A stretch of DNA of 39,472 nt from a virus (Duplodnaviria > Heunggongvirae > Uroviricota > Caudoviricetes), in IMG/VR virus record IMGVR_UViG_2695420732_000023; one strand, 5' to 3'. The translations under genes were made by a program, and so were the position numbers. Below, one piece after another: positions 13,573 to 39,472 of the stretch. Within the stretch, counting starts at the first letter, position 1. Each line of letters begins with the position of its first letter. Under the pieces are notes generated by a model, which was not told where the DNA came from, searched no databases, and was given only the letters and a program-made list of their open reading frames with translations.

Positions 13573-14388
13573 TTATTTCTTTTTTTTATTACTTTCAGAT
13601 AATCGTCGGTTTAATGTGTATTTTATTTGGTTCCTAATCATTTTTTCAGGAATGTCATATTTGTCTAAGAATGATATTATTTCATCCTCGTCAAGCAATC
13701 CATTCTTTATAATTTCATCTATCTGTTTTTGTAGATACCAAACATCCTTCTGTTCTACAGGAGTTAAATTCATATGGCTATTTATGGAGTTGATAGTAGC
13801 ATCACGTTCAAGAACTCTAATCCTTTGATTTAATGAACGAGTGTTTTGTAATATTTCAGATAAAAGATCTTGTTCAGTACGTGGTTTTACTTCTTCAGTT
13901 GGAGGGTATTGATCTAAAGCTCGTTTAAAATTTTTTTCAAATTGCTCCCAGTATGTATTAAAAACTTGCTTTAGAATACGGTCATCTAAAGATTTATCGA
14001 CAAGACAATTGTTTATTGTCCTTACTAATTCCCAAACACTCTCTTTATTTGGCGTTGTGTGATTGAATTGAGCAAGTGGATCTTTTAAATCTTCTGGTTT
14101 TAAGTCAATCAAGAATGTACAAACTTTATTTGTTGAAAGTCCTTTTGCTAGTGCTCCTGTTTCAAACAAAATCCATGGTTTATTTTTATTTTCTTGTGTC
14201 AAACATACAATGCCGACAGATACATCTTTTAATTTATCATTAATTTCAGAGAACCATATAGCGCCACGATCAATATCTCTGGTTGAAATCCATGGCTGCG
14301 AAGCTTGGATAACACACTTCAGCCAGTCGCTAATAAGTTCTGCAACAGCTTGACTTCTTTGCCCAGACCAACTTATGAACACTTTCAT
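13573..14388 (-). CDS. TIR-like domain protein (N-terminal TIR-like fold, C-terminal domain of unknown function); candidate antiphage defence moron
   Basis: start MKVFISWSGQRSQAVAELISDWL (FISWSG motif typical of bacterial TIR-like domains), later WILFETGAL with candidate catalytic Glu; visibly AT-rich versus flanks; opposite strand to all neighbouring late genes; GGAG RBS. Confidence 0.65.
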   Translation of the reverse strand: MKVFISWSGQRSQAVAELISDWLKCVIQASQPWISTRDIDRGAIWFSEINDKLKDVSVGIVCLTQENKNKPWILFETGALAKGLSTNKVCTFLIDLKPEDLKDPLAQFNHTTPNKESVWELVRTINNCLVDKSLDDRILKQVFNTYWEQFEKNFKRALDQYPPTEEVKPRTEQDLLSEILQNTRSLNQRIRVLERDATINSINSHMNLTPVEQKDVWYLQKQIDEIIKNGLLDEDEIISFLDKYDIPEKMIRNQIKYTLNRRLSESNKKKK

Positions 14389-14512
14389 TATGTACTCCAT
14401 GTAATCACTCAAAAGGGACTGAAATTTACATTAAAAATTAAATAAAATCACTCACGCGGTCCGCAGAAACCATTGTAATCTGTTATGAGTGGTTACTTCG
14501 CCACACAACTTA

Positions 14513-15950: not shown

Positions 15951-15981
15951 AGCTGCCCATATCGATGGGCAACTCATGCAA

Positions 15982-16275
15982 TTATTGTGAGCAATACACA
16001 CGTGCTTCCAGCGGAGTATAAATGCCTAAAGTAATAAAACCGAGCAATCCATTTACGAATGTTTGCTGGGTTTCTGTTTTAACCACATTTTCTGCGCCGC
16101 CACAAATTTTGGCTGCATCAACAGTTTTCTCCTGTCCAATTCCCGAAACGAAGAAATGATGGGTGATGGTTTCCTTTGGTGTTACTGCTGTCGGTTTGTT
16201 TCCAACAGTAAACGTCTGTTGAGCACATCCTGTAATAAGCATTGCCAGAGCGGCAGAAAACAACATTTTTTTCAT
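15982..16275 (-). CDS. bor: Bor outer-membrane lipoprotein (serum resistance)
   Basis: 97-aa from MKKMLFSAALAMLITGCAQQ (lipobox); matches lambda Bor by recall; track ORF trimmed to ATG at 16275 with AGGA RBS. Confidence 0.88.
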   Translation of the reverse strand: MKKMLFSAALAMLITGCAQQTFTVGNKPTAVTPKETITHHFFVSGIGQEKTVDAAKICGGAENVVKTETQQTFVNGLLGFITLGIYTPLEARVYCSQ

Positions 16276-34128: not shown

Positions 34129-34887
34129 ATGCATCGTATAGACACGAAAACCGCGCAGAAGGATAAGTTCGGCGCGGGTAAGAACGGTTTTACCCGTGGT
34201 AACCCCCAAACCGGCACACCTGCCACCGATCTGGATGATGACTACTTTGACATGTTGCAGGAAGAACTTTGTAGCGTGGTGGAGGCCTCCGGTGCCAGCC
34301 TGGAGAAAGGGCGGCATGACCAGCTGCTTACCGCACTTCGTGCGCTGCTGTTAAGCCGCAAGAATCCGTTTGGCGATATCAAATCGGATGGCACAGTGCA
34401 AACGGCTCTCGAAAACCTTGGTTTGGGAGAAGGTGCTCCAGCTATTGGCGTTCCGTTCTTCTGGCCGTCCGCTGCAATGCCAAATACTGTAATCGACAGC
34501 TGGTCCAGTATGGTGTTTCTGAAGTTCAACGGAGCCACATTCTCAGCGTCGAATTATCCAAAACTCGCTCTGGTGTTTCCTGCATTAACACTGCCTGAAG
34601 CACGCGGTGAATTTATTCGTATCTGGGATGATGGCCGTGGCGTTGACAGTGGCCGTGCATTACTTTCCGCACAATCAGACGATTTCAAAACGCACGAGCA
34701 TAAAATTTTAGGGCTAAATGGAAGTGGCAGTAATGTAGTGTTTGGCACCGTTTCGAATGCTTCTCCATTATATACCAGCGGCGTTAGTCAGCCGGCTGGA
34801 AGTGCTTTGCCCGCTTTTCAAAACCCAGGCGGTACTGAAACGCGTCCCCGTAACATCGCATTCAACTTTTTAGTAAGGGCTAAATAA
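34129..34887 (+). CDS. tail fibre protein (constant N-terminal part to ~34428 fused to currently expressed variable part Sv)
   Basis: 252-aa; hix/gix-like crossover site inside gene at 34416-34442; followed by tail fibre assembly gene. Confidence 0.8.
34416..34442. repeat. invertase crossover site (hix/gix-like) within tail fibre gene
   Basis: CTCTCGAAAACCTTGGTTTGGGAGAAG resembles hixL TTCTTGAAAACCAAGGTTTTTGATAA; inverted partner at 36385-36411. Confidence 0.55.
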
Positions 34888-35480
34888 TGAAACCTGTTTT
34901 TGATGAAAATGGACTGGCTACAGTGCCGGGTGATATGCGTTGTTTTTATTATGATGCAGTAACGTATGAATATACGGGCTGGTCTGATGAATATATTAAT
35001 ACTGGCGTAAGTATGCCCGCCTGTTCCACTGGTATTGACCCTGGCGAAAACATTCCGGGAAAAGTGGCAGTATTTACGGGTAAGGGATGGAGCCATGAAG
35101 AAGACCATCGCAATGAGACTGTTTACTCAATCGAAAATGGCGCAGCTGTTACAGTGGATTATATCGGTGCCATCAAAAACGGTTATGTCACGCTTTCACC
35201 GTTAACGCCATATGATAAATGGGATGGTGAGAAATGGGTGACAGATACTGAGGCACAACACGGTGCCGCAGTAGAAGCGGCAGAAGCACAGCGCCAGTCA
35301 CTGATTGATGCTGCAATGGCTTCCATCAGCCTGATTCAGCTGAAATTACAGGCCGGGCGGAAGCTGACGCAGGCAGAAACCACCCGGCTTAACGCCGTGC
35401 TTGATTACATTGACGCGGTGACGGCAACAGATACGAGCACCGCGCCGGATGTCATCTGGCCTGAACTGCCGGAGGCGTAG
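34887..35480 (+). CDS. tail fibre assembly chaperone (Tfa)
   Basis: 197-aa; start overlaps fibre stop; typical Tfa size and position. Confidence 0.8.
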   Translation: MKPVFDENGLATVPGDMRCFYYDAVTYEYTGWSDEYINTGVSMPACSTGIDPGENIPGKVAVFTGKGWSHEEDHRNETVYSIENGAAVTVDYIGAIKNGYVTLSPLTPYDKWDGEKWVTDTEAQHGAAVEAAEAQRQSLIDAAMASISLIQLKLQAGRKLTQAETTRLNAVLDYIDAVTATDTSTAPDVIWPELPEA

Positions 35481-35895
35481 GCCATTCAATATCTGGCGCA
35501 CCGGAAGTATCGACCAGCTCCAGTACGTCCAGATAATCCAGCCACAAATTATATTGCGCCAGTTCCTCACCTTTCAGGCGACCAATCGCTGCTTTACCAG
35601 GCCATTGCTTACTGTATATGTATTCGTTGACCTGATTAATCAATTGCTGCTTTTCCAGTTCGGCTGCGGCAATTTGTTCCTCATGAGTTGGCGGTGGAAT
35701 TTCCCCCCAGGTGGGAAGGCCATCATCACCCGCGATGCGTACTTTCCCTTGCAACGTTCTGTCTTCAATAAATTCCAGGTAAGTGTCATATGTCACTTCG
35801 ACAATATCAGCAAGTTCCCATCCGGCCTGTTCATATTTCGCCACATCATTTTTAGCGAAAAAACTATTATTTGAGGCGCTATAAACCATTTCCAT
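35452..35895 (-). CDS. alternative tail fibre assembly chaperone (Tfa') in inverted orientation
   Basis: 147-aa; C-terminal region resembles Tfa C-terminus (APDIEWPTPP versus APDVIWPELP in Tfa); convergent with Tfa. Confidence 0.75.
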   Translation of the reverse strand: MEMVYSASNNSFFAKNDVAKYEQAGWELADIVEVTYDTYLEFIEDRTLQGKVRIAGDDGLPTWGEIPPPTHEEQIAAAELEKQQLINQVNEYIYSKQWPGKAAIGRLKGEELAQYNLWLDYLDVLELVDTSGAPDIEWPTPPAVQAR

Positions 35896-35896
35896 A

Positions 35897-36399
35897 TTAA
35901 TACCCTACTGCAATATAAAAAACTGATTCACCAGCGTCCTGAGAACCTACCCCCGGAACGCCAGACCAGGCTTTGTTAATGAATGCAAAACTGGTATTAC
36001 TCAGATCAGATGCTCTGTACATCGGGCTGAACATCCAGTAGTTGGCTCCATATGTTTGTCCGAAAACAATGCCATAGCACTGATTTGTAAATGGCGTAGA
36101 AAATAATTTTCCACCAGTACCAGCGATAGTCCCGAATCGCATCTGGAACCCATTCGGGAAATTAATTCCGCCTGCCGGTGAAGACCAGTAAGACATATCA
36201 GGTATTTGCCCAGCACTATTTCCCACGTTTTTTGTTGCAACGGTTCCTAACCCAAGATTAGCTCTTGCATCAGATTTATTTGTTAACTCATAAAGATTAT
36301 TTGCCTTTTGAAGTGCTCCTGTTATGCGTAAATCATCACCAGCGGCAACGGTTCCGACTGTCGTGCCCACATCCCTTTTCGCCGCTTCTCCTAAACCAA
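35897..36399 (-). CDS. alternative tail fibre variable segment (Sv'), lacking its own start in present orientation
   Basis: minus-strand frame open from crossover site to stop at 35897; glycine-rich fibre-like sequence; would fuse to fibre constant part after inversion. Confidence 0.6.
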
Positions 36400-36411
36400 C
36401 ATTTATGAAAA
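36385..36411. repeat. invertase crossover site (inverted partner)
   Basis: reverse complement matches 34428-34442 at 14 of 15 positions (TTGGTTTAGGAGAAG versus TTGGTTTGGGAGAAG). Confidence 0.5.
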
Positions 36412-36465
36412 TGCAGAAATAACGAGCAAATGGCATCATTCCTGCTTTTGCTAGGGAGATCTACC

Positions 36466-36594
36466 ATGCTTATTGGCTATGTACGTGTGTCAACAAATGA
36501 CCAGAACACAGATCTACAACGTAATGCGCTGAACTGTGCAGGATGCGAGCTGATTTTTGAAGACAAGATAAGCGGTACAAAGTCCGAAACCTAG
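36466..36594 (+). pseudogene. pin: Pin/Gin/Hin-family serine DNA invertase, truncated after 42 codons
   Basis: MLIGYVRVSTNDQNTDLQRNALNCAGCELIFEDKISGT matches the N-terminus of Pin-family invertases by recall, then stop; a full invertase is ~190 aa. Confidence 0.8.
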
Positions 36595-36632
36595 GGCTGA
36601 CACTGCTGTTCTTGTTGCAAATTAAAGGATTT

Positions 36633-36658
36633 AATAGTGAGTAGCGGCCTTACTAATG
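36633..36658. terminator. perfect hairpin AGCGGCCTTAC-taat-GTAAGGCCGCT between pin remnant and DUF262/DUF1524 gene
   Basis: 11-bp perfect stem, 4-nt loop; lies between convergent gene ends. Confidence 0.45.
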
Positions 36659-36689
36659 TAAGGCCGCTATAATCATTTTATTAATTGCA

Positions 36690-38579
36690 TTAATCGTGTT
36701 TTGGCCATACTTTCAATGCAATTTCCCCCAACATTTTACCCCGCTCCAGGATTTCATCCTCATCCCATTTATCCTTAACTATAAGTGGAATGTTCAGTCG
36801 TAGATTGGTGTGGACGATGAGAGCATCACGTTTTTTCAGAAATACAGCATTCTGAACAGAACGGTTTACGCTAAGGTTAAGCAAAGTTAGATTTCCCAAC
36901 GTAGCTATCGCTTGTTGCCGTTTCCTTACCAGTAGCTGTTCTGGGGTAAGATCGGTTCCAGACAGAACAATTTGGTTCAATACCGTAGCATCTGAATTTG
37001 TCACCATATGACCATTTTCGAGAGGCCAACAGGAATACCAACTTTGAGGCATAAGATGATCGATATCGAGGTTAGAAAGATTTGGAACATCAGGCTTCTC
37101 TGTCTTCACTTGGCGACAAAGTTCTCTTTCAAGTTCCGTTAACATTGAGCGCATTTTCGGTGCGTCGAGCCTGCCAGGATAAAGTGGAGCATTGATGCAA
37201 GCGTTGAGAAATTCTGAGTCCCCAGGCCAACGTGAGGCTTCGCCATTTAAGCTATTGAGGATATTACGTAACTCAACACTGGAAATTTCTGTTTTAGACA
37301 AGTGCCGCAATACATTCATAAATACATTGTTGTAATTCTTTGGCGTCAGGCCACATACGGCTCTTCGTACTACGTAGGAGACAAGATCATTATACATGGC
37401 TGCTTTCTCATCATCGGCGATGTTAGCTATCGAAATGAACAAAGCAAGCGGATAAAGTGTCGTCACATCATAGGCTGCGATGCGATGTCCAAAGTGTGAG
37501 ATGGGGGTTGTGCCAAAACCACCAACCAATTCTTTATATTGTGATGCATATTGTTTGAGGCGCTTTACTTGCAGATCTGCTCGTTGTGAAGGCAAGTCCT
37601 TACTTACATAATCACGATACTCATTGTAAAGACGAGACAGATCGATTTCACGTTGCCTTTCTGATTGCAATGTTGCATGCACTAGCCACTCCATGCGTGG
37701 TTTATTAATACGACCACGACGTTGTCTTTCTGACCAGTACGTATCTTCAAAGATCTTCCACTCATTCTCATATAATTCAACAGCATTAATATTTTCATGT
37801 TCAGCGCACATAAAAATATAATTGCGAATAAGATCTGTGGCATGAAGTTCCGCACCTCTGCCATTTAATGTTTCAAAAATTATTTGAGCGTCATCTTCAG
37901 CCTCGAGAAATATGCTTACTAGTTTCAGATCCGTCAAGACAGCCTCAATTAATGCTACAGCATTTTCTCGTGGTGAGTGATTTTCTATTTTAATCCACTT
38001 TATAAAGGCTTCAGTAAAAAAACATAATGCTTCTAGTGATGGCGGGTGATTAAAATGCTTACGCAACGTACCATGCTGCGTGAAACTATCAGAGAATACA
38101 TTCCGGATATCGTCAATATTTTCAACATTAAAACTTTGAATAAAATGAGTTTGATCCCGAAAAGTTGGCCACAGTTTGAAGCGCTCTACTTCTTTATTTC
38201 GCATTGTGTCTTCGTTTGAGTTTTTCAGGCAAGACGAAATGAGAGGCTCTAAGTAGGAAAGATCTGTTGCACGTAATGCTAATCGGATGGATGCCAGAAC
38301 ATATTGAAGAGTGGTCAATCGTTGCTGACCATCAATAATATGTATGGAATCTACACCGAATAATCCTTTTTTTGGTTGAGGTTCCAGTACAACTGCACCA
38401 AGGAAATGGGGAGTTGGTTTTGTACCCGAGAGCCGGGATTGTGCTTTCTCTAGGATATCCTCCAGTAGAGCTGACCATTGGTTTCGCTGAGTCCATACAT
38501 AGGCACGTTGATAGAATGGAACACAGTATTGTCGGCGGTCTTGAAAAAGTTGTTGGACAGTTAGCGTCTCGGATTTCAT
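36690..38579 (-). CDS. fused DUF262/DUF1524 protein (GmrSD-like putative type IV modification-dependent restriction endonuclease)
   Basis: N-terminal FYQRAYVWTQRNQW and DGQQRLTTL (DUF262/ParB-like NTPase motifs), C-terminal DIDHLMPQS (DUF1524 His-Me finger-like); AT-rich; start set at ATG 38579 (MKSETLTV), alternative ATG at 38639. Confidence 0.75.
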   Translation of the reverse strand: MKSETLTVQQLFQDRRQYCVPFYQRAYVWTQRNQWSALLEDILEKAQSRLSGTKPTPHFLGAVVLEPQPKKGLFGVDSIHIIDGQQRLTTLQYVLASIRLALRATDLSYLEPLISSCLKNSNEDTMRNKEVERFKLWPTFRDQTHFIQSFNVENIDDIRNVFSDSFTQHGTLRKHFNHPPSLEALCFFTEAFIKWIKIENHSPRENAVALIEAVLTDLKLVSIFLEAEDDAQIIFETLNGRGAELHATDLIRNYIFMCAEHENINAVELYENEWKIFEDTYWSERQRRGRINKPRMEWLVHATLQSERQREIDLSRLYNEYRDYVSKDLPSQRADLQVKRLKQYASQYKELVGGFGTTPISHFGHRIAAYDVTTLYPLALFISIANIADDEKAAMYNDLVSYVVRRAVCGLTPKNYNNVFMNVLRHLSKTEISSVELRNILNSLNGEASRWPGDSEFLNACINAPLYPGRLDAPKMRSMLTELERELCRQVKTEKPDVPNLSNLDIDHLMPQSWYSCWPLENGHMVTNSDATVLNQIVLSGTDLTPEQLLVRKRQQAIATLGNLTLLNLSVNRSVQNAVFLKKRDALIVHTNLRLNIPLIVKDKWDEDEILERGKMLGEIALKVWPKHD

Positions 38580-39046
38580 GGTATACCTGTAAGCGACATT
38601 GTACAAAAGTGAGGAGTTAATCTGATTTAGAACAATCATTTTATGTTGCTATGATACAACGTATTTGTTACCGGTTAAGTAAAAAACGCGTCTGAACGCT
38701 GACGTTTTAGGGCTTTACTAGTTATTCTTTCTTATCTCTTCATCATCCCATCGGCATCCTGTCGAGGTTGTTGACTTGTTGTTATTTATTTTGTTTAGGC
38801 GCTGTTTAATTATTATTGATGGGACTGGTGGTGAGAGGTGATTGAAACCGCAGACAGGTCGTATGCAAGACGTGCTGCGGTTGGCTGATGCACTTTTGAT
38901 AGTGCAAGTATTGAATGATTGCCAGTCACAGCGGATTGTACTTAGGTAATATGACGGTTCAAGGCGTTTAAACTGAAACCATCCACATATCAGTCTCTTC
39001 AAACATTTCCTAAATCGTTCGGCTTATCTGTTCTTTCTCACGTTTG

Positions 39047-39472
39047 CTGACGTCAGTGCTGATTGCCGGCAGTGTCATCATCGGTTTTACACGATACCCT
39101 TTGCGTTGAACGAGTCGTACTACTGTAACAACGCGTCGGTGAAGCTGCTCATCCCGACACAGGACAGTCGGGATATCATTGCAGTAGCAACGGGGAGTCT
39201 GGATGCAATATGGAAAGACGGACACCGATATCAGAAAGCCGGGGTAATGCTGGGGGACTTCTTCAGTCAGAGCATGCCCTAACCTATTCGACGATAACGC
39301 GCTGGGTCCTGGGAGCGAAAAGTTAATGAGCGTGCTGGAGCACCTCAACGCAAAAGACGGGAAGGAAACACTCTGTTTCGCTGGGCAGGGCATTCAGCAG
39401 CAGTGGCAGATGAAACGCGAGATATTTTCGCACCGGTATACAACTAGATTTTCTGGCATTTTAGGTGGTTAG
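39047..39472 (+). pseudogene. 3' remnant of a umuC-like (Y-family polymerase) gene with frame disruptions
   Basis: translated pieces in two frames (…SRDIIAVATGSLDAIWKDGHRYQKAGVMLGDFFSQ / LFDDNALGPGSEKLMSVLEHLNAKDGKETLCFAGQGIQQQWQMKREIFSHRYTTR) resemble the UmuC C-terminus by recall; no N-terminal part present. Confidence 0.45.

Follow-up and report, generated by a model that had tools for sequence, protein, structure and literature searches.

A decayed umuC fragment in the attP-proximal cargo of an SfI-like prophage at thrW, beside a right boundary that appears intact

Introduction

Does a prophage that ends in broken genes, with no second attachment site in view, represent a relic fixed in the chromosome, or a phage whose accessory cargo has decayed behind a working boundary? 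The question is raised by the right end of IMG/VR record IMGVR_UViG_2695420732_000023, a 39,472-nucleotide stretch of DNA analysed here as a whole and referred to as the window. The initial annotation found no repeat of the tRNA 3' end and a frame-disrupted umuC-like fragment in the last few hundred base pairs, and read these, together with a truncated invertase, as the eroded right boundary of a cryptic, non-excisable prophage, remodelled by deletion or by recombination with a umuDC-bearing element. From the comparisons described below, the umuC fragment is very probably a decayed part of an attP-proximal cargo slot in a phage of the SfI/SfIV/SfV family integrated at thrW, with its boundary intact and ordinary gene decay accounting for the broken genes.

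The prophage and its insertion site

The window opens in host DNA, in which two features define the insertion site:

1-1254, proA, at the start of the window
1369-1444, tRNA-Thr(CGT), the thrW gene

The DNA past the right edge of the window was read from E. coli O103 strain ML775 (NZ_CP193495.1), a near-identical genome that serves as a proxy and is not the window's own source. Identity to ML775 is 100% over the last 2 kb of the window, and over the whole 39.5 kb the two sequences differ by one homopolymer length (T8/T7, 13578-13586) and one single-nucleotide polymorphism; this near-identity makes ML775 usable for reading beyond the right edge. Measured through ML775, the prophage extends ~40.8 kb from attL to attR, near the lengths of SfI (38.4 kb) and SfIV (39.8 kb), and is apparently a near-complete, SfI-like E. 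coli prophage integrated in thrW. The PGAP annotation of ML775 contains full sets of regulatory, replication, lysis, head, tail and baseplate genes. Outside the right-end cargo, PGAP marks only two backbone genes as pseudogenes, both frameshifted: a ymfL homologue (window 7641-8201) and a small hypothetical gene (~5.4-5.7 kb). The phage may therefore be defective through these two genes, for causes unrelated to its boundary, and inducibility could suffer.

Two further genes of the backbone region are recorded here. A gene for a TIR-domain protein (13573-14412, minus strand) lies between the Q antiterminator and holin genes and is likely defence or moron cargo; the T8 of the window, against T7 in ML775, alters the C-terminal end of its open reading frame. 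An iss/bor-type 'increased serum survival' lipoprotein gene (~15981-16274, minus strand; PGAP, ML775) lies between the lysis and the HNH/terminase genes.

Attachment sites and the right boundary

The left end of the prophage carries the following features:

1399-1446, plus strand, attL core: 48 bp, the 3' part of thrW plus TT, with an exact repeat at attR past the window
1459-2622, minus strand, integrase: 387 aa, 384 of 387 residues identical to SfI Int (~99%)
2499-2849, minus strand, excisionase: 116 aa, 109 of 116 residues identical to SfI Xis (94%)

The observation from which the idea of an eroded boundary began is correct as far as it goes: the 22-mer at the thrW 3' end, TCGACTCCTATTATCGGCACCA, has a single copy in the window (1423-1444), and no second one appears there even with 3 mismatches allowed. 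It seemed to lack an attR because the window ends short of it. In ML775, an exact second copy of the tRNA 22-mer is present at L001 16684-16705, 2.7 kb past the window end, as part of a 48-bp direct repeat, ATTCGTAATGCGAAGGTCGTAGGTTCGACTCCTATTATCGGCACCATT, found at both prophage ends. Left of the attR core, ~125 bp match the annotated attP region of SfIV and SfI at 98-99% identity. Conversely, a BLAST search with SfI attP recovered its integrase-side arm at attL (99.2%; core plus arm match 1399-1644) and its cargo-side arm at attR (96.3%). To the right of attR, ML775 continues into a yagP pseudogene and then paoDCBA, the usual E. coli backbone. The prophage thus carries the thrW integration module of the SfI/SfIV/SfV type, with the core at both ends and the attP arms accompanied by their cognate Int and Xis.

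As read from these alignments, the right boundary is not eroded, and the window's cut-off point accounts for the apparent absence of attR. Extension beyond the window, proposed in the initial annotation as the way to look for the attR core, brought that core to light together with the intact flank that would contradict erosion. Since att sites, int and xis are all intact by sequence, none of the losses expected of a cryptic prophage at these elements is found, and the inference of a cryptic, non-excisable state lacks support, the more so given the near-complete set of phage genes annotated by PGAP. An eroded boundary with a lost attR could still draw on the lack of a second thrW 3' end inside the window, on the truncation of the invertase, dinI and umuC genes, and on the occurrence in other strains of a truly deleted derivative without morphogenesis genes. 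Set against the exact core, SfI-type arm and yagP-paoD flank in ML775, the ~99% and 94% identity of Int and Xis to those of SfI, a functional and inducible phage, the structural, lysis and regulatory genes annotated as intact, and an attP-type junction in a related contig, this reading is highly unlikely.

The deleted derivative and the attP-type junction deserve separate description. In IMGVR_UViG_2660238190_000005, proA-thrW-attL-int and the following sequence (to ~9.6 kb) are joined directly to pin'-GmrSD-dinI'-umuC'-ParA. By its gene content this locus is a truly cryptic deletion derivative, in which int-xis and the right-end cargo are kept and the interval corresponding to ~9.6-36.4 kb, with all virion genes, is missing. 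A second record (IMGVR_UViG_2617270968_000003, 16.7 kb) holds an attP-type junction, in which the cargo-side arm, the core and the integrase-side arm are contiguous, as well as an attR with host flank. This combination suggests tandem copies or excised circles of the deletion derivative, in an assembly that is ambiguous. A clean circular element was considered for the same record and rejected: its ends are contiguous, yet host flank lies inside it, and a tandem array, a mixture of circle and integrated copies, and an assembly artefact are indistinguishable. Subject to the same ambiguity of assembly, the junction speaks indirectly for recent activity of the Int/att system linked to this cargo.

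The umuC remnant

The last features of the window are these:

39091-39472, plus strand, umuC': the C-terminal ~126 codons of umuC, comprising the end of the little-finger domain and DUF4113, without catalytic domain, umuD or promoter
~39272-39283, plus strand, a net 5-nt loss in umuC' between FFSQ and NLFDD, relative to five of five comparators

That a frame-disrupted, UmuC-like 3' fragment lies here was borne out. After repair of the frame, the translation matches Pfam DUF4113 (E 6.8e-17, profile 1-48/51) and the tail of IMS_C only (E 6e-6, profile 58-99/109), and the DNA matches chromosomal umuC of 5,371 E. coli genomes, essentially all of them, at ~71% identity (E 1e-40). Both lines of homology point to descent from UmuC. 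The fragment was aligned to three intact umuC genes (E. coli, a Klebsiella phage, a Klebsiella chromosome) and to two further relatives. Homology begins at ...T(S/I)PFALNE, near codon 297, so the last 30% of umuC is kept. The ~430 bp first described as umuC-like are umuC-derived at a somewhat shorter length of 382 bp (39091-39472). Likewise, the 2-nt loss first placed between FFSQ and LFDD holds modulo 3, while the actual net loss against the five comparators is 5 nt. It yields a premature TAA at 39280-39282; past the break, the sequence continues in the +1 frame to a TAG at 39470-39472, the last codon of the window. With no N-terminal catalytic IMS domain, an interrupted frame and no umuD, the fragment does not qualify as a functional UmuC or Y-family polymerase.

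The nearest intact UmuC proteins found in scans of plasmid, viral and GTDB sequences are 80-83% identical in amino acids over the fragment and belong to prophage-linked copies of Citrobacter or Enterobacter. An undeleted parent of this exact umuC allele was not found, and no E. coli complete genome carries a longer version at >=85% identity.

The dinI remnant and the deletion junction

To the left of the umuC fragment, 38968-39093 is a minus-strand remnant of dinI and not umuC:

38968-39093, minus strand, dinI': the C-terminal 42 codons of a DinI-family gene (phrog_189 DinI, E 1e-5; phrog_36550, E 2e-17)
39091-39096, dinI'/umuC' deletion junction, with ACG at 39091-39093 common to both parents

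The dinI' stub reads RVKPMMTLPAISTDVSKREKEQISRTI and, after an in-frame stop, EMFEETDMWMVSV. The stop, a TAG at 39010-39012 where intact relatives have CAG, removes the last 13 of the 42 codons, and the product falls short of a complete DinI of ~77-81 aa with an acidic C-terminal helix. Both dinI' and umuC' are already known as pseudogenes, since PGAP labels them as such (dinI' as "DinI family protein, missing N-terminus").

The nearest view of the state before the deletion comes from a related locus (L172) that has an intact dinI 90% identical to the window stub (exact-word scan) and a umuC only 79% identical. There, the two positions that meet at the window's junction are 1,500 nt from each other, and ACG stands on both sides of the breakpoint. 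The ACG shared at the junction suggests microhomology, a reading that, like the length of the deletion, derives from related rather than parental alleles. The dinI'-umuC' junction is present in ~50 E. coli complete genomes at >=99% identity, and all of those inspected have it at the thrW locus.

In some E. coli copies the spacer at 38.8-38.9 kb is interrupted by IS1, IS2 or IS21. In WP2-S18-ESBL-08, an IS21-family element and IS2 are inserted at 38812-38818 and 38899-38903, in the spacer between GmrSD and dinI', and in VG1046-3E9 an IS1 lies inside the last 2 kb of the window.

Are the stubs expressed?

A scan for promoters and terminators over 38400-39472 gave counts not above shuffled controls. 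An Rfam scan of 36000-39472 at a permissive threshold gave two chance-level matches only, to snoRNA and miRNA models, far under their gathering scores. The spacer at 38640-38967 contains nothing notable, with no credible Rfam match and no excess of motifs. Given no promoter and no catalytic or fold-complete domain, we infer that the dinI' and umuC' stubs are inert pseudogenes.

Could the umuC fragment nonetheless act, as a small DUF4113-only protein or through an antisense product, to modulate host Pol V, RecA or UmuD'? Its DUF4113 part is free of stops over 39284-39472 and contains a 48-aa open reading frame with ATG at 39327 and a GGAG 10 nt upstream. These features stand against the loss of the umuDC promoter region with the 1.5-kb segment, a promoter scan at the level of shuffled controls in which neither minus-strand match lies downstream of the stub, leaving an antisense product without a driver, and nearest upstream genes of which one is the truncated pin and the other runs on the opposite strand. 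The E. coli copies, all >=99% identical, give no evidence of purifying selection, and an independent umuC stub in a related locus (L180) carries its own internal stop. We assign this functional reading an almost negligible probability. A variant of it, in which a DUF4113 stub expressed by read-through (for example the same 48-aa frame) is a decoy for partners of the host UmuC C-terminus, is exceedingly unlikely; were it true, the prophage would dampen host SOS mutagenesis via a gene fragment.

A 127-aa open reading frame runs antisense through umuC' in frame into dinI' (39010-39393, minus strand) and has the TAG at 39010-39012 as its stop. PGAP does not call this frame, which most likely arose by chance through the deletion.

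The invertase and the restriction cassette

The decayed stubs are not the only sign of change in this region, which further left contains the remains of an invertase and an intact restriction gene:

36466-36588, plus strand, pin': the first 41 codons of a Pin/Hin-type DNA invertase (Pfam Resolvase N-terminal, E 3e-9)
36690-38579, minus strand, a GmrSD-family type IV methyl-directed restriction endonuclease: intact, 629 aa
38845-38924, plus strand, pin 3' flank: the sequence that in other prophages comes straight after the stop of pin-type invertase genes, with the palindrome CCGCAG...CTGCGG

PGAP describes pin' as a pseudogene without its C-terminus. The restriction protein has both domains of its family, GmrSD_N (DUF262, E 7e-34) and the GmrSD_C nuclease (DUF1524, E 6e-20; both Pfam), and matches the PADLOC profile mREase_IV over its full length (1434.7 bits, profile 1-629/629). 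A cassette at 36589-38844 (2.26 kb) stands in place of the invertase body, from pin codon 42 to the end. As the pin body has been replaced, the adjacent invertible tail-fibre segment (34887-36439) would be frozen. The block of pin', GmrSD and pin flank recurs at 96% identity in an ssrA-integrated prophage, where homology stops at 38923, and is also found in several hundred E. coli genomes.

In this respect the initial annotation was right: remodelling has affected the stretch from the tail-fibre genes to the right end, apparently by a 1.5-kb deletion that fused dinI' to umuC' and by a restriction gene that replaced the invertase body. Its suggestion of a umuDC-bearing source also stands, in that the fragment appears to descend from a umuDC-bearing cargo module.

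Cargo beyond the window and the origin of the slot

Past the window, ML775 has two phage-family hypothetical genes and a ParA-family ATPase gene, all on the minus strand, and further right a 46-codon stub (SRAP') of a gene for an SOS-response-associated peptidase (SRAP), followed by attR. The three genes (ParA-family ATPase, phrog_6264, phrog_7540) form an operon at L001 14011-15912, 37 bp-2.0 kb past the window end. G+C content is 51% in umuC' and 52% in SRAP', with 27-35% in the ParA operon between them. PADLOC gave no convincing match for the three operon proteins; all three match phage protein families. The operon might serve in partition or represent a defence module of an uncharacterised kind.

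The layout from dinI' to SRAP' raises the possibility that this block is a second thrW-integrating element (an island, a satellite or a plasmid-like element with ParA), fused in tandem with the prophage after loss of an internal att site. The uneven G+C is in its favour, the ParA operon lying far from the 51-52% of the prophage, as are the ParA-type ATPase, typical of plasmids, and a related locus (L171) in which the block dinI'-umuC'-ParA-SRAP'-attR is joined to a different left-hand sequence. Against it, a search that allowed up to 3 mismatches, over the window and the next 12 kb, found no degenerate internal att copy. In a circular 41.7-kb Klebsiella phage genome, an intact dinI (leftward) and umuD-umuC (rightward) lie between the tail genes and int, which places the module inside a phage. 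The attL-attR length close to those of SfI and SfIV, the phage families of the three operon proteins, and the attP-type junction, with its cargo-side arm contiguous with the core and the integrase-side arm, also speak against a second element, to which we give only a small probability.

The reading as phage cargo agrees with the intact modules. In 20 of the 80 closest IMG/VR loci, dinI and umuD-umuC are followed by a convergent SRAP gene, a complete layout more frequent than any other in this set; enterobacterial prophages commonly carry the module beside an att site. In one intact example (L013), SRAP directly adjoins umuC. At L180, dinI and SRAP are both intact and accompany an S24 peptidase gene, the ParA operon and a umuC stub that is distinct from that of the window and shorter; this stub, the one with an internal stop, retains the 5 nt lost in the window. 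Because the ParA operon is found there beside intact dinI and SRAP genes, its insertion would be older than three changes seen in the window: the deletion of 1.5 kb, the loss of 5 nt from umuC' and the truncation of SRAP.

A proposed history of the slot

The comparisons are consistent with the following sequence of events. The ancestral slot, between the tail-fibre/invertase genes and attP, would have held an SOS module with dinI (leftward), umuD-umuC (rightward) and a convergent SRAP. The AT-rich three-gene ParA operon would then have been inserted between umuC and SRAP, earlier than the deletions. A single ~1.5-kb deletion, probably by illegitimate recombination at the ACG microhomology, would have removed the 5' half of dinI, the shared promoter region, umuD and umuC codons 1 to ~296. 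Later decay would have added the nonsense mutation in dinI' and the net 5-nt loss in umuC'. SRAP was presumably truncated after the ParA insertion, and in the same slot the GmrSD restriction cassette would have replaced the pin body.

Relation to known phages and prophages

The phages SfI, SfIV and SfV share a 46-bp attP and integrate in thrW, and their serotype-conversion genes adjoin int-attP (SfIV paper, PMC3851460). These thrW-integrating phages of Shigella flexneri, with a Mu-like tail and a lambdoid early region, are alike to the present prophage in Int, Xis, attP core and both arms, and have the same gene order of tail fibre, cargo slot, attP, int and xis. They differ in host, E. coli here and Shigella for the Sf phages, and in the content of the slot: pin', GmrSD, dinI', umuC', the ParA operon and SRAP' here, gtrA-gtrB-gtr(type) in the Sf phages.

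Compared with the umuDC (DNA polymerase V) operon and its plasmid and phage homologues, often found with dinI and SRAP, the window has the same neighbours, dinI and SRAP. In contrast to an intact umuDC, it has lost umuD and the promoter, and its umuC is frameshifted and reduced to the last 30%, without the catalytic domain.

The right end of e14 in E. coli K-12, integrated at icd, consists of a tail-fibre invertible segment, pin, mcrA and attR. There too, a Pin-type invertase lies beside an invertible tail-fibre segment and a type IV, modification-dependent restriction gene follows near the attachment site; the two differ in that mcrA follows pin in e14, whereas here, at thrW, a gene of the GmrSD family replaces most of pin. 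In a related locus (L002), McrBC-like genes come after a pin remnant. CP4-6/ptwF, at thrW in K-12, shares the site and the right flank (a partial tRNA-Thr copy, yagP and paoD, with one database match). CP4-6 is a heavily decayed cryptic prophage, and its content is unrelated to that of the present near-complete prophage.

Implications

Taken by itself, the umuC' stub is nothing surprising or mechanistically new, and it matters little. The result corrects an artefact of the window edge: with its proper attL/attR pair, the prophage should be regarded as an SfI-like E. coli phage with the potential for induction rather than as a relic fixed in place. For the family, the slot that carries O-antigen-modifying gtr genes in the Shigella phages would hold defence (GmrSD) and SOS-related (dinI, umuDC, SRAP) cargo in their E. 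coli relatives, and the cargo of this attP-proximal slot appears to turn over fast, through deletion and insertion.
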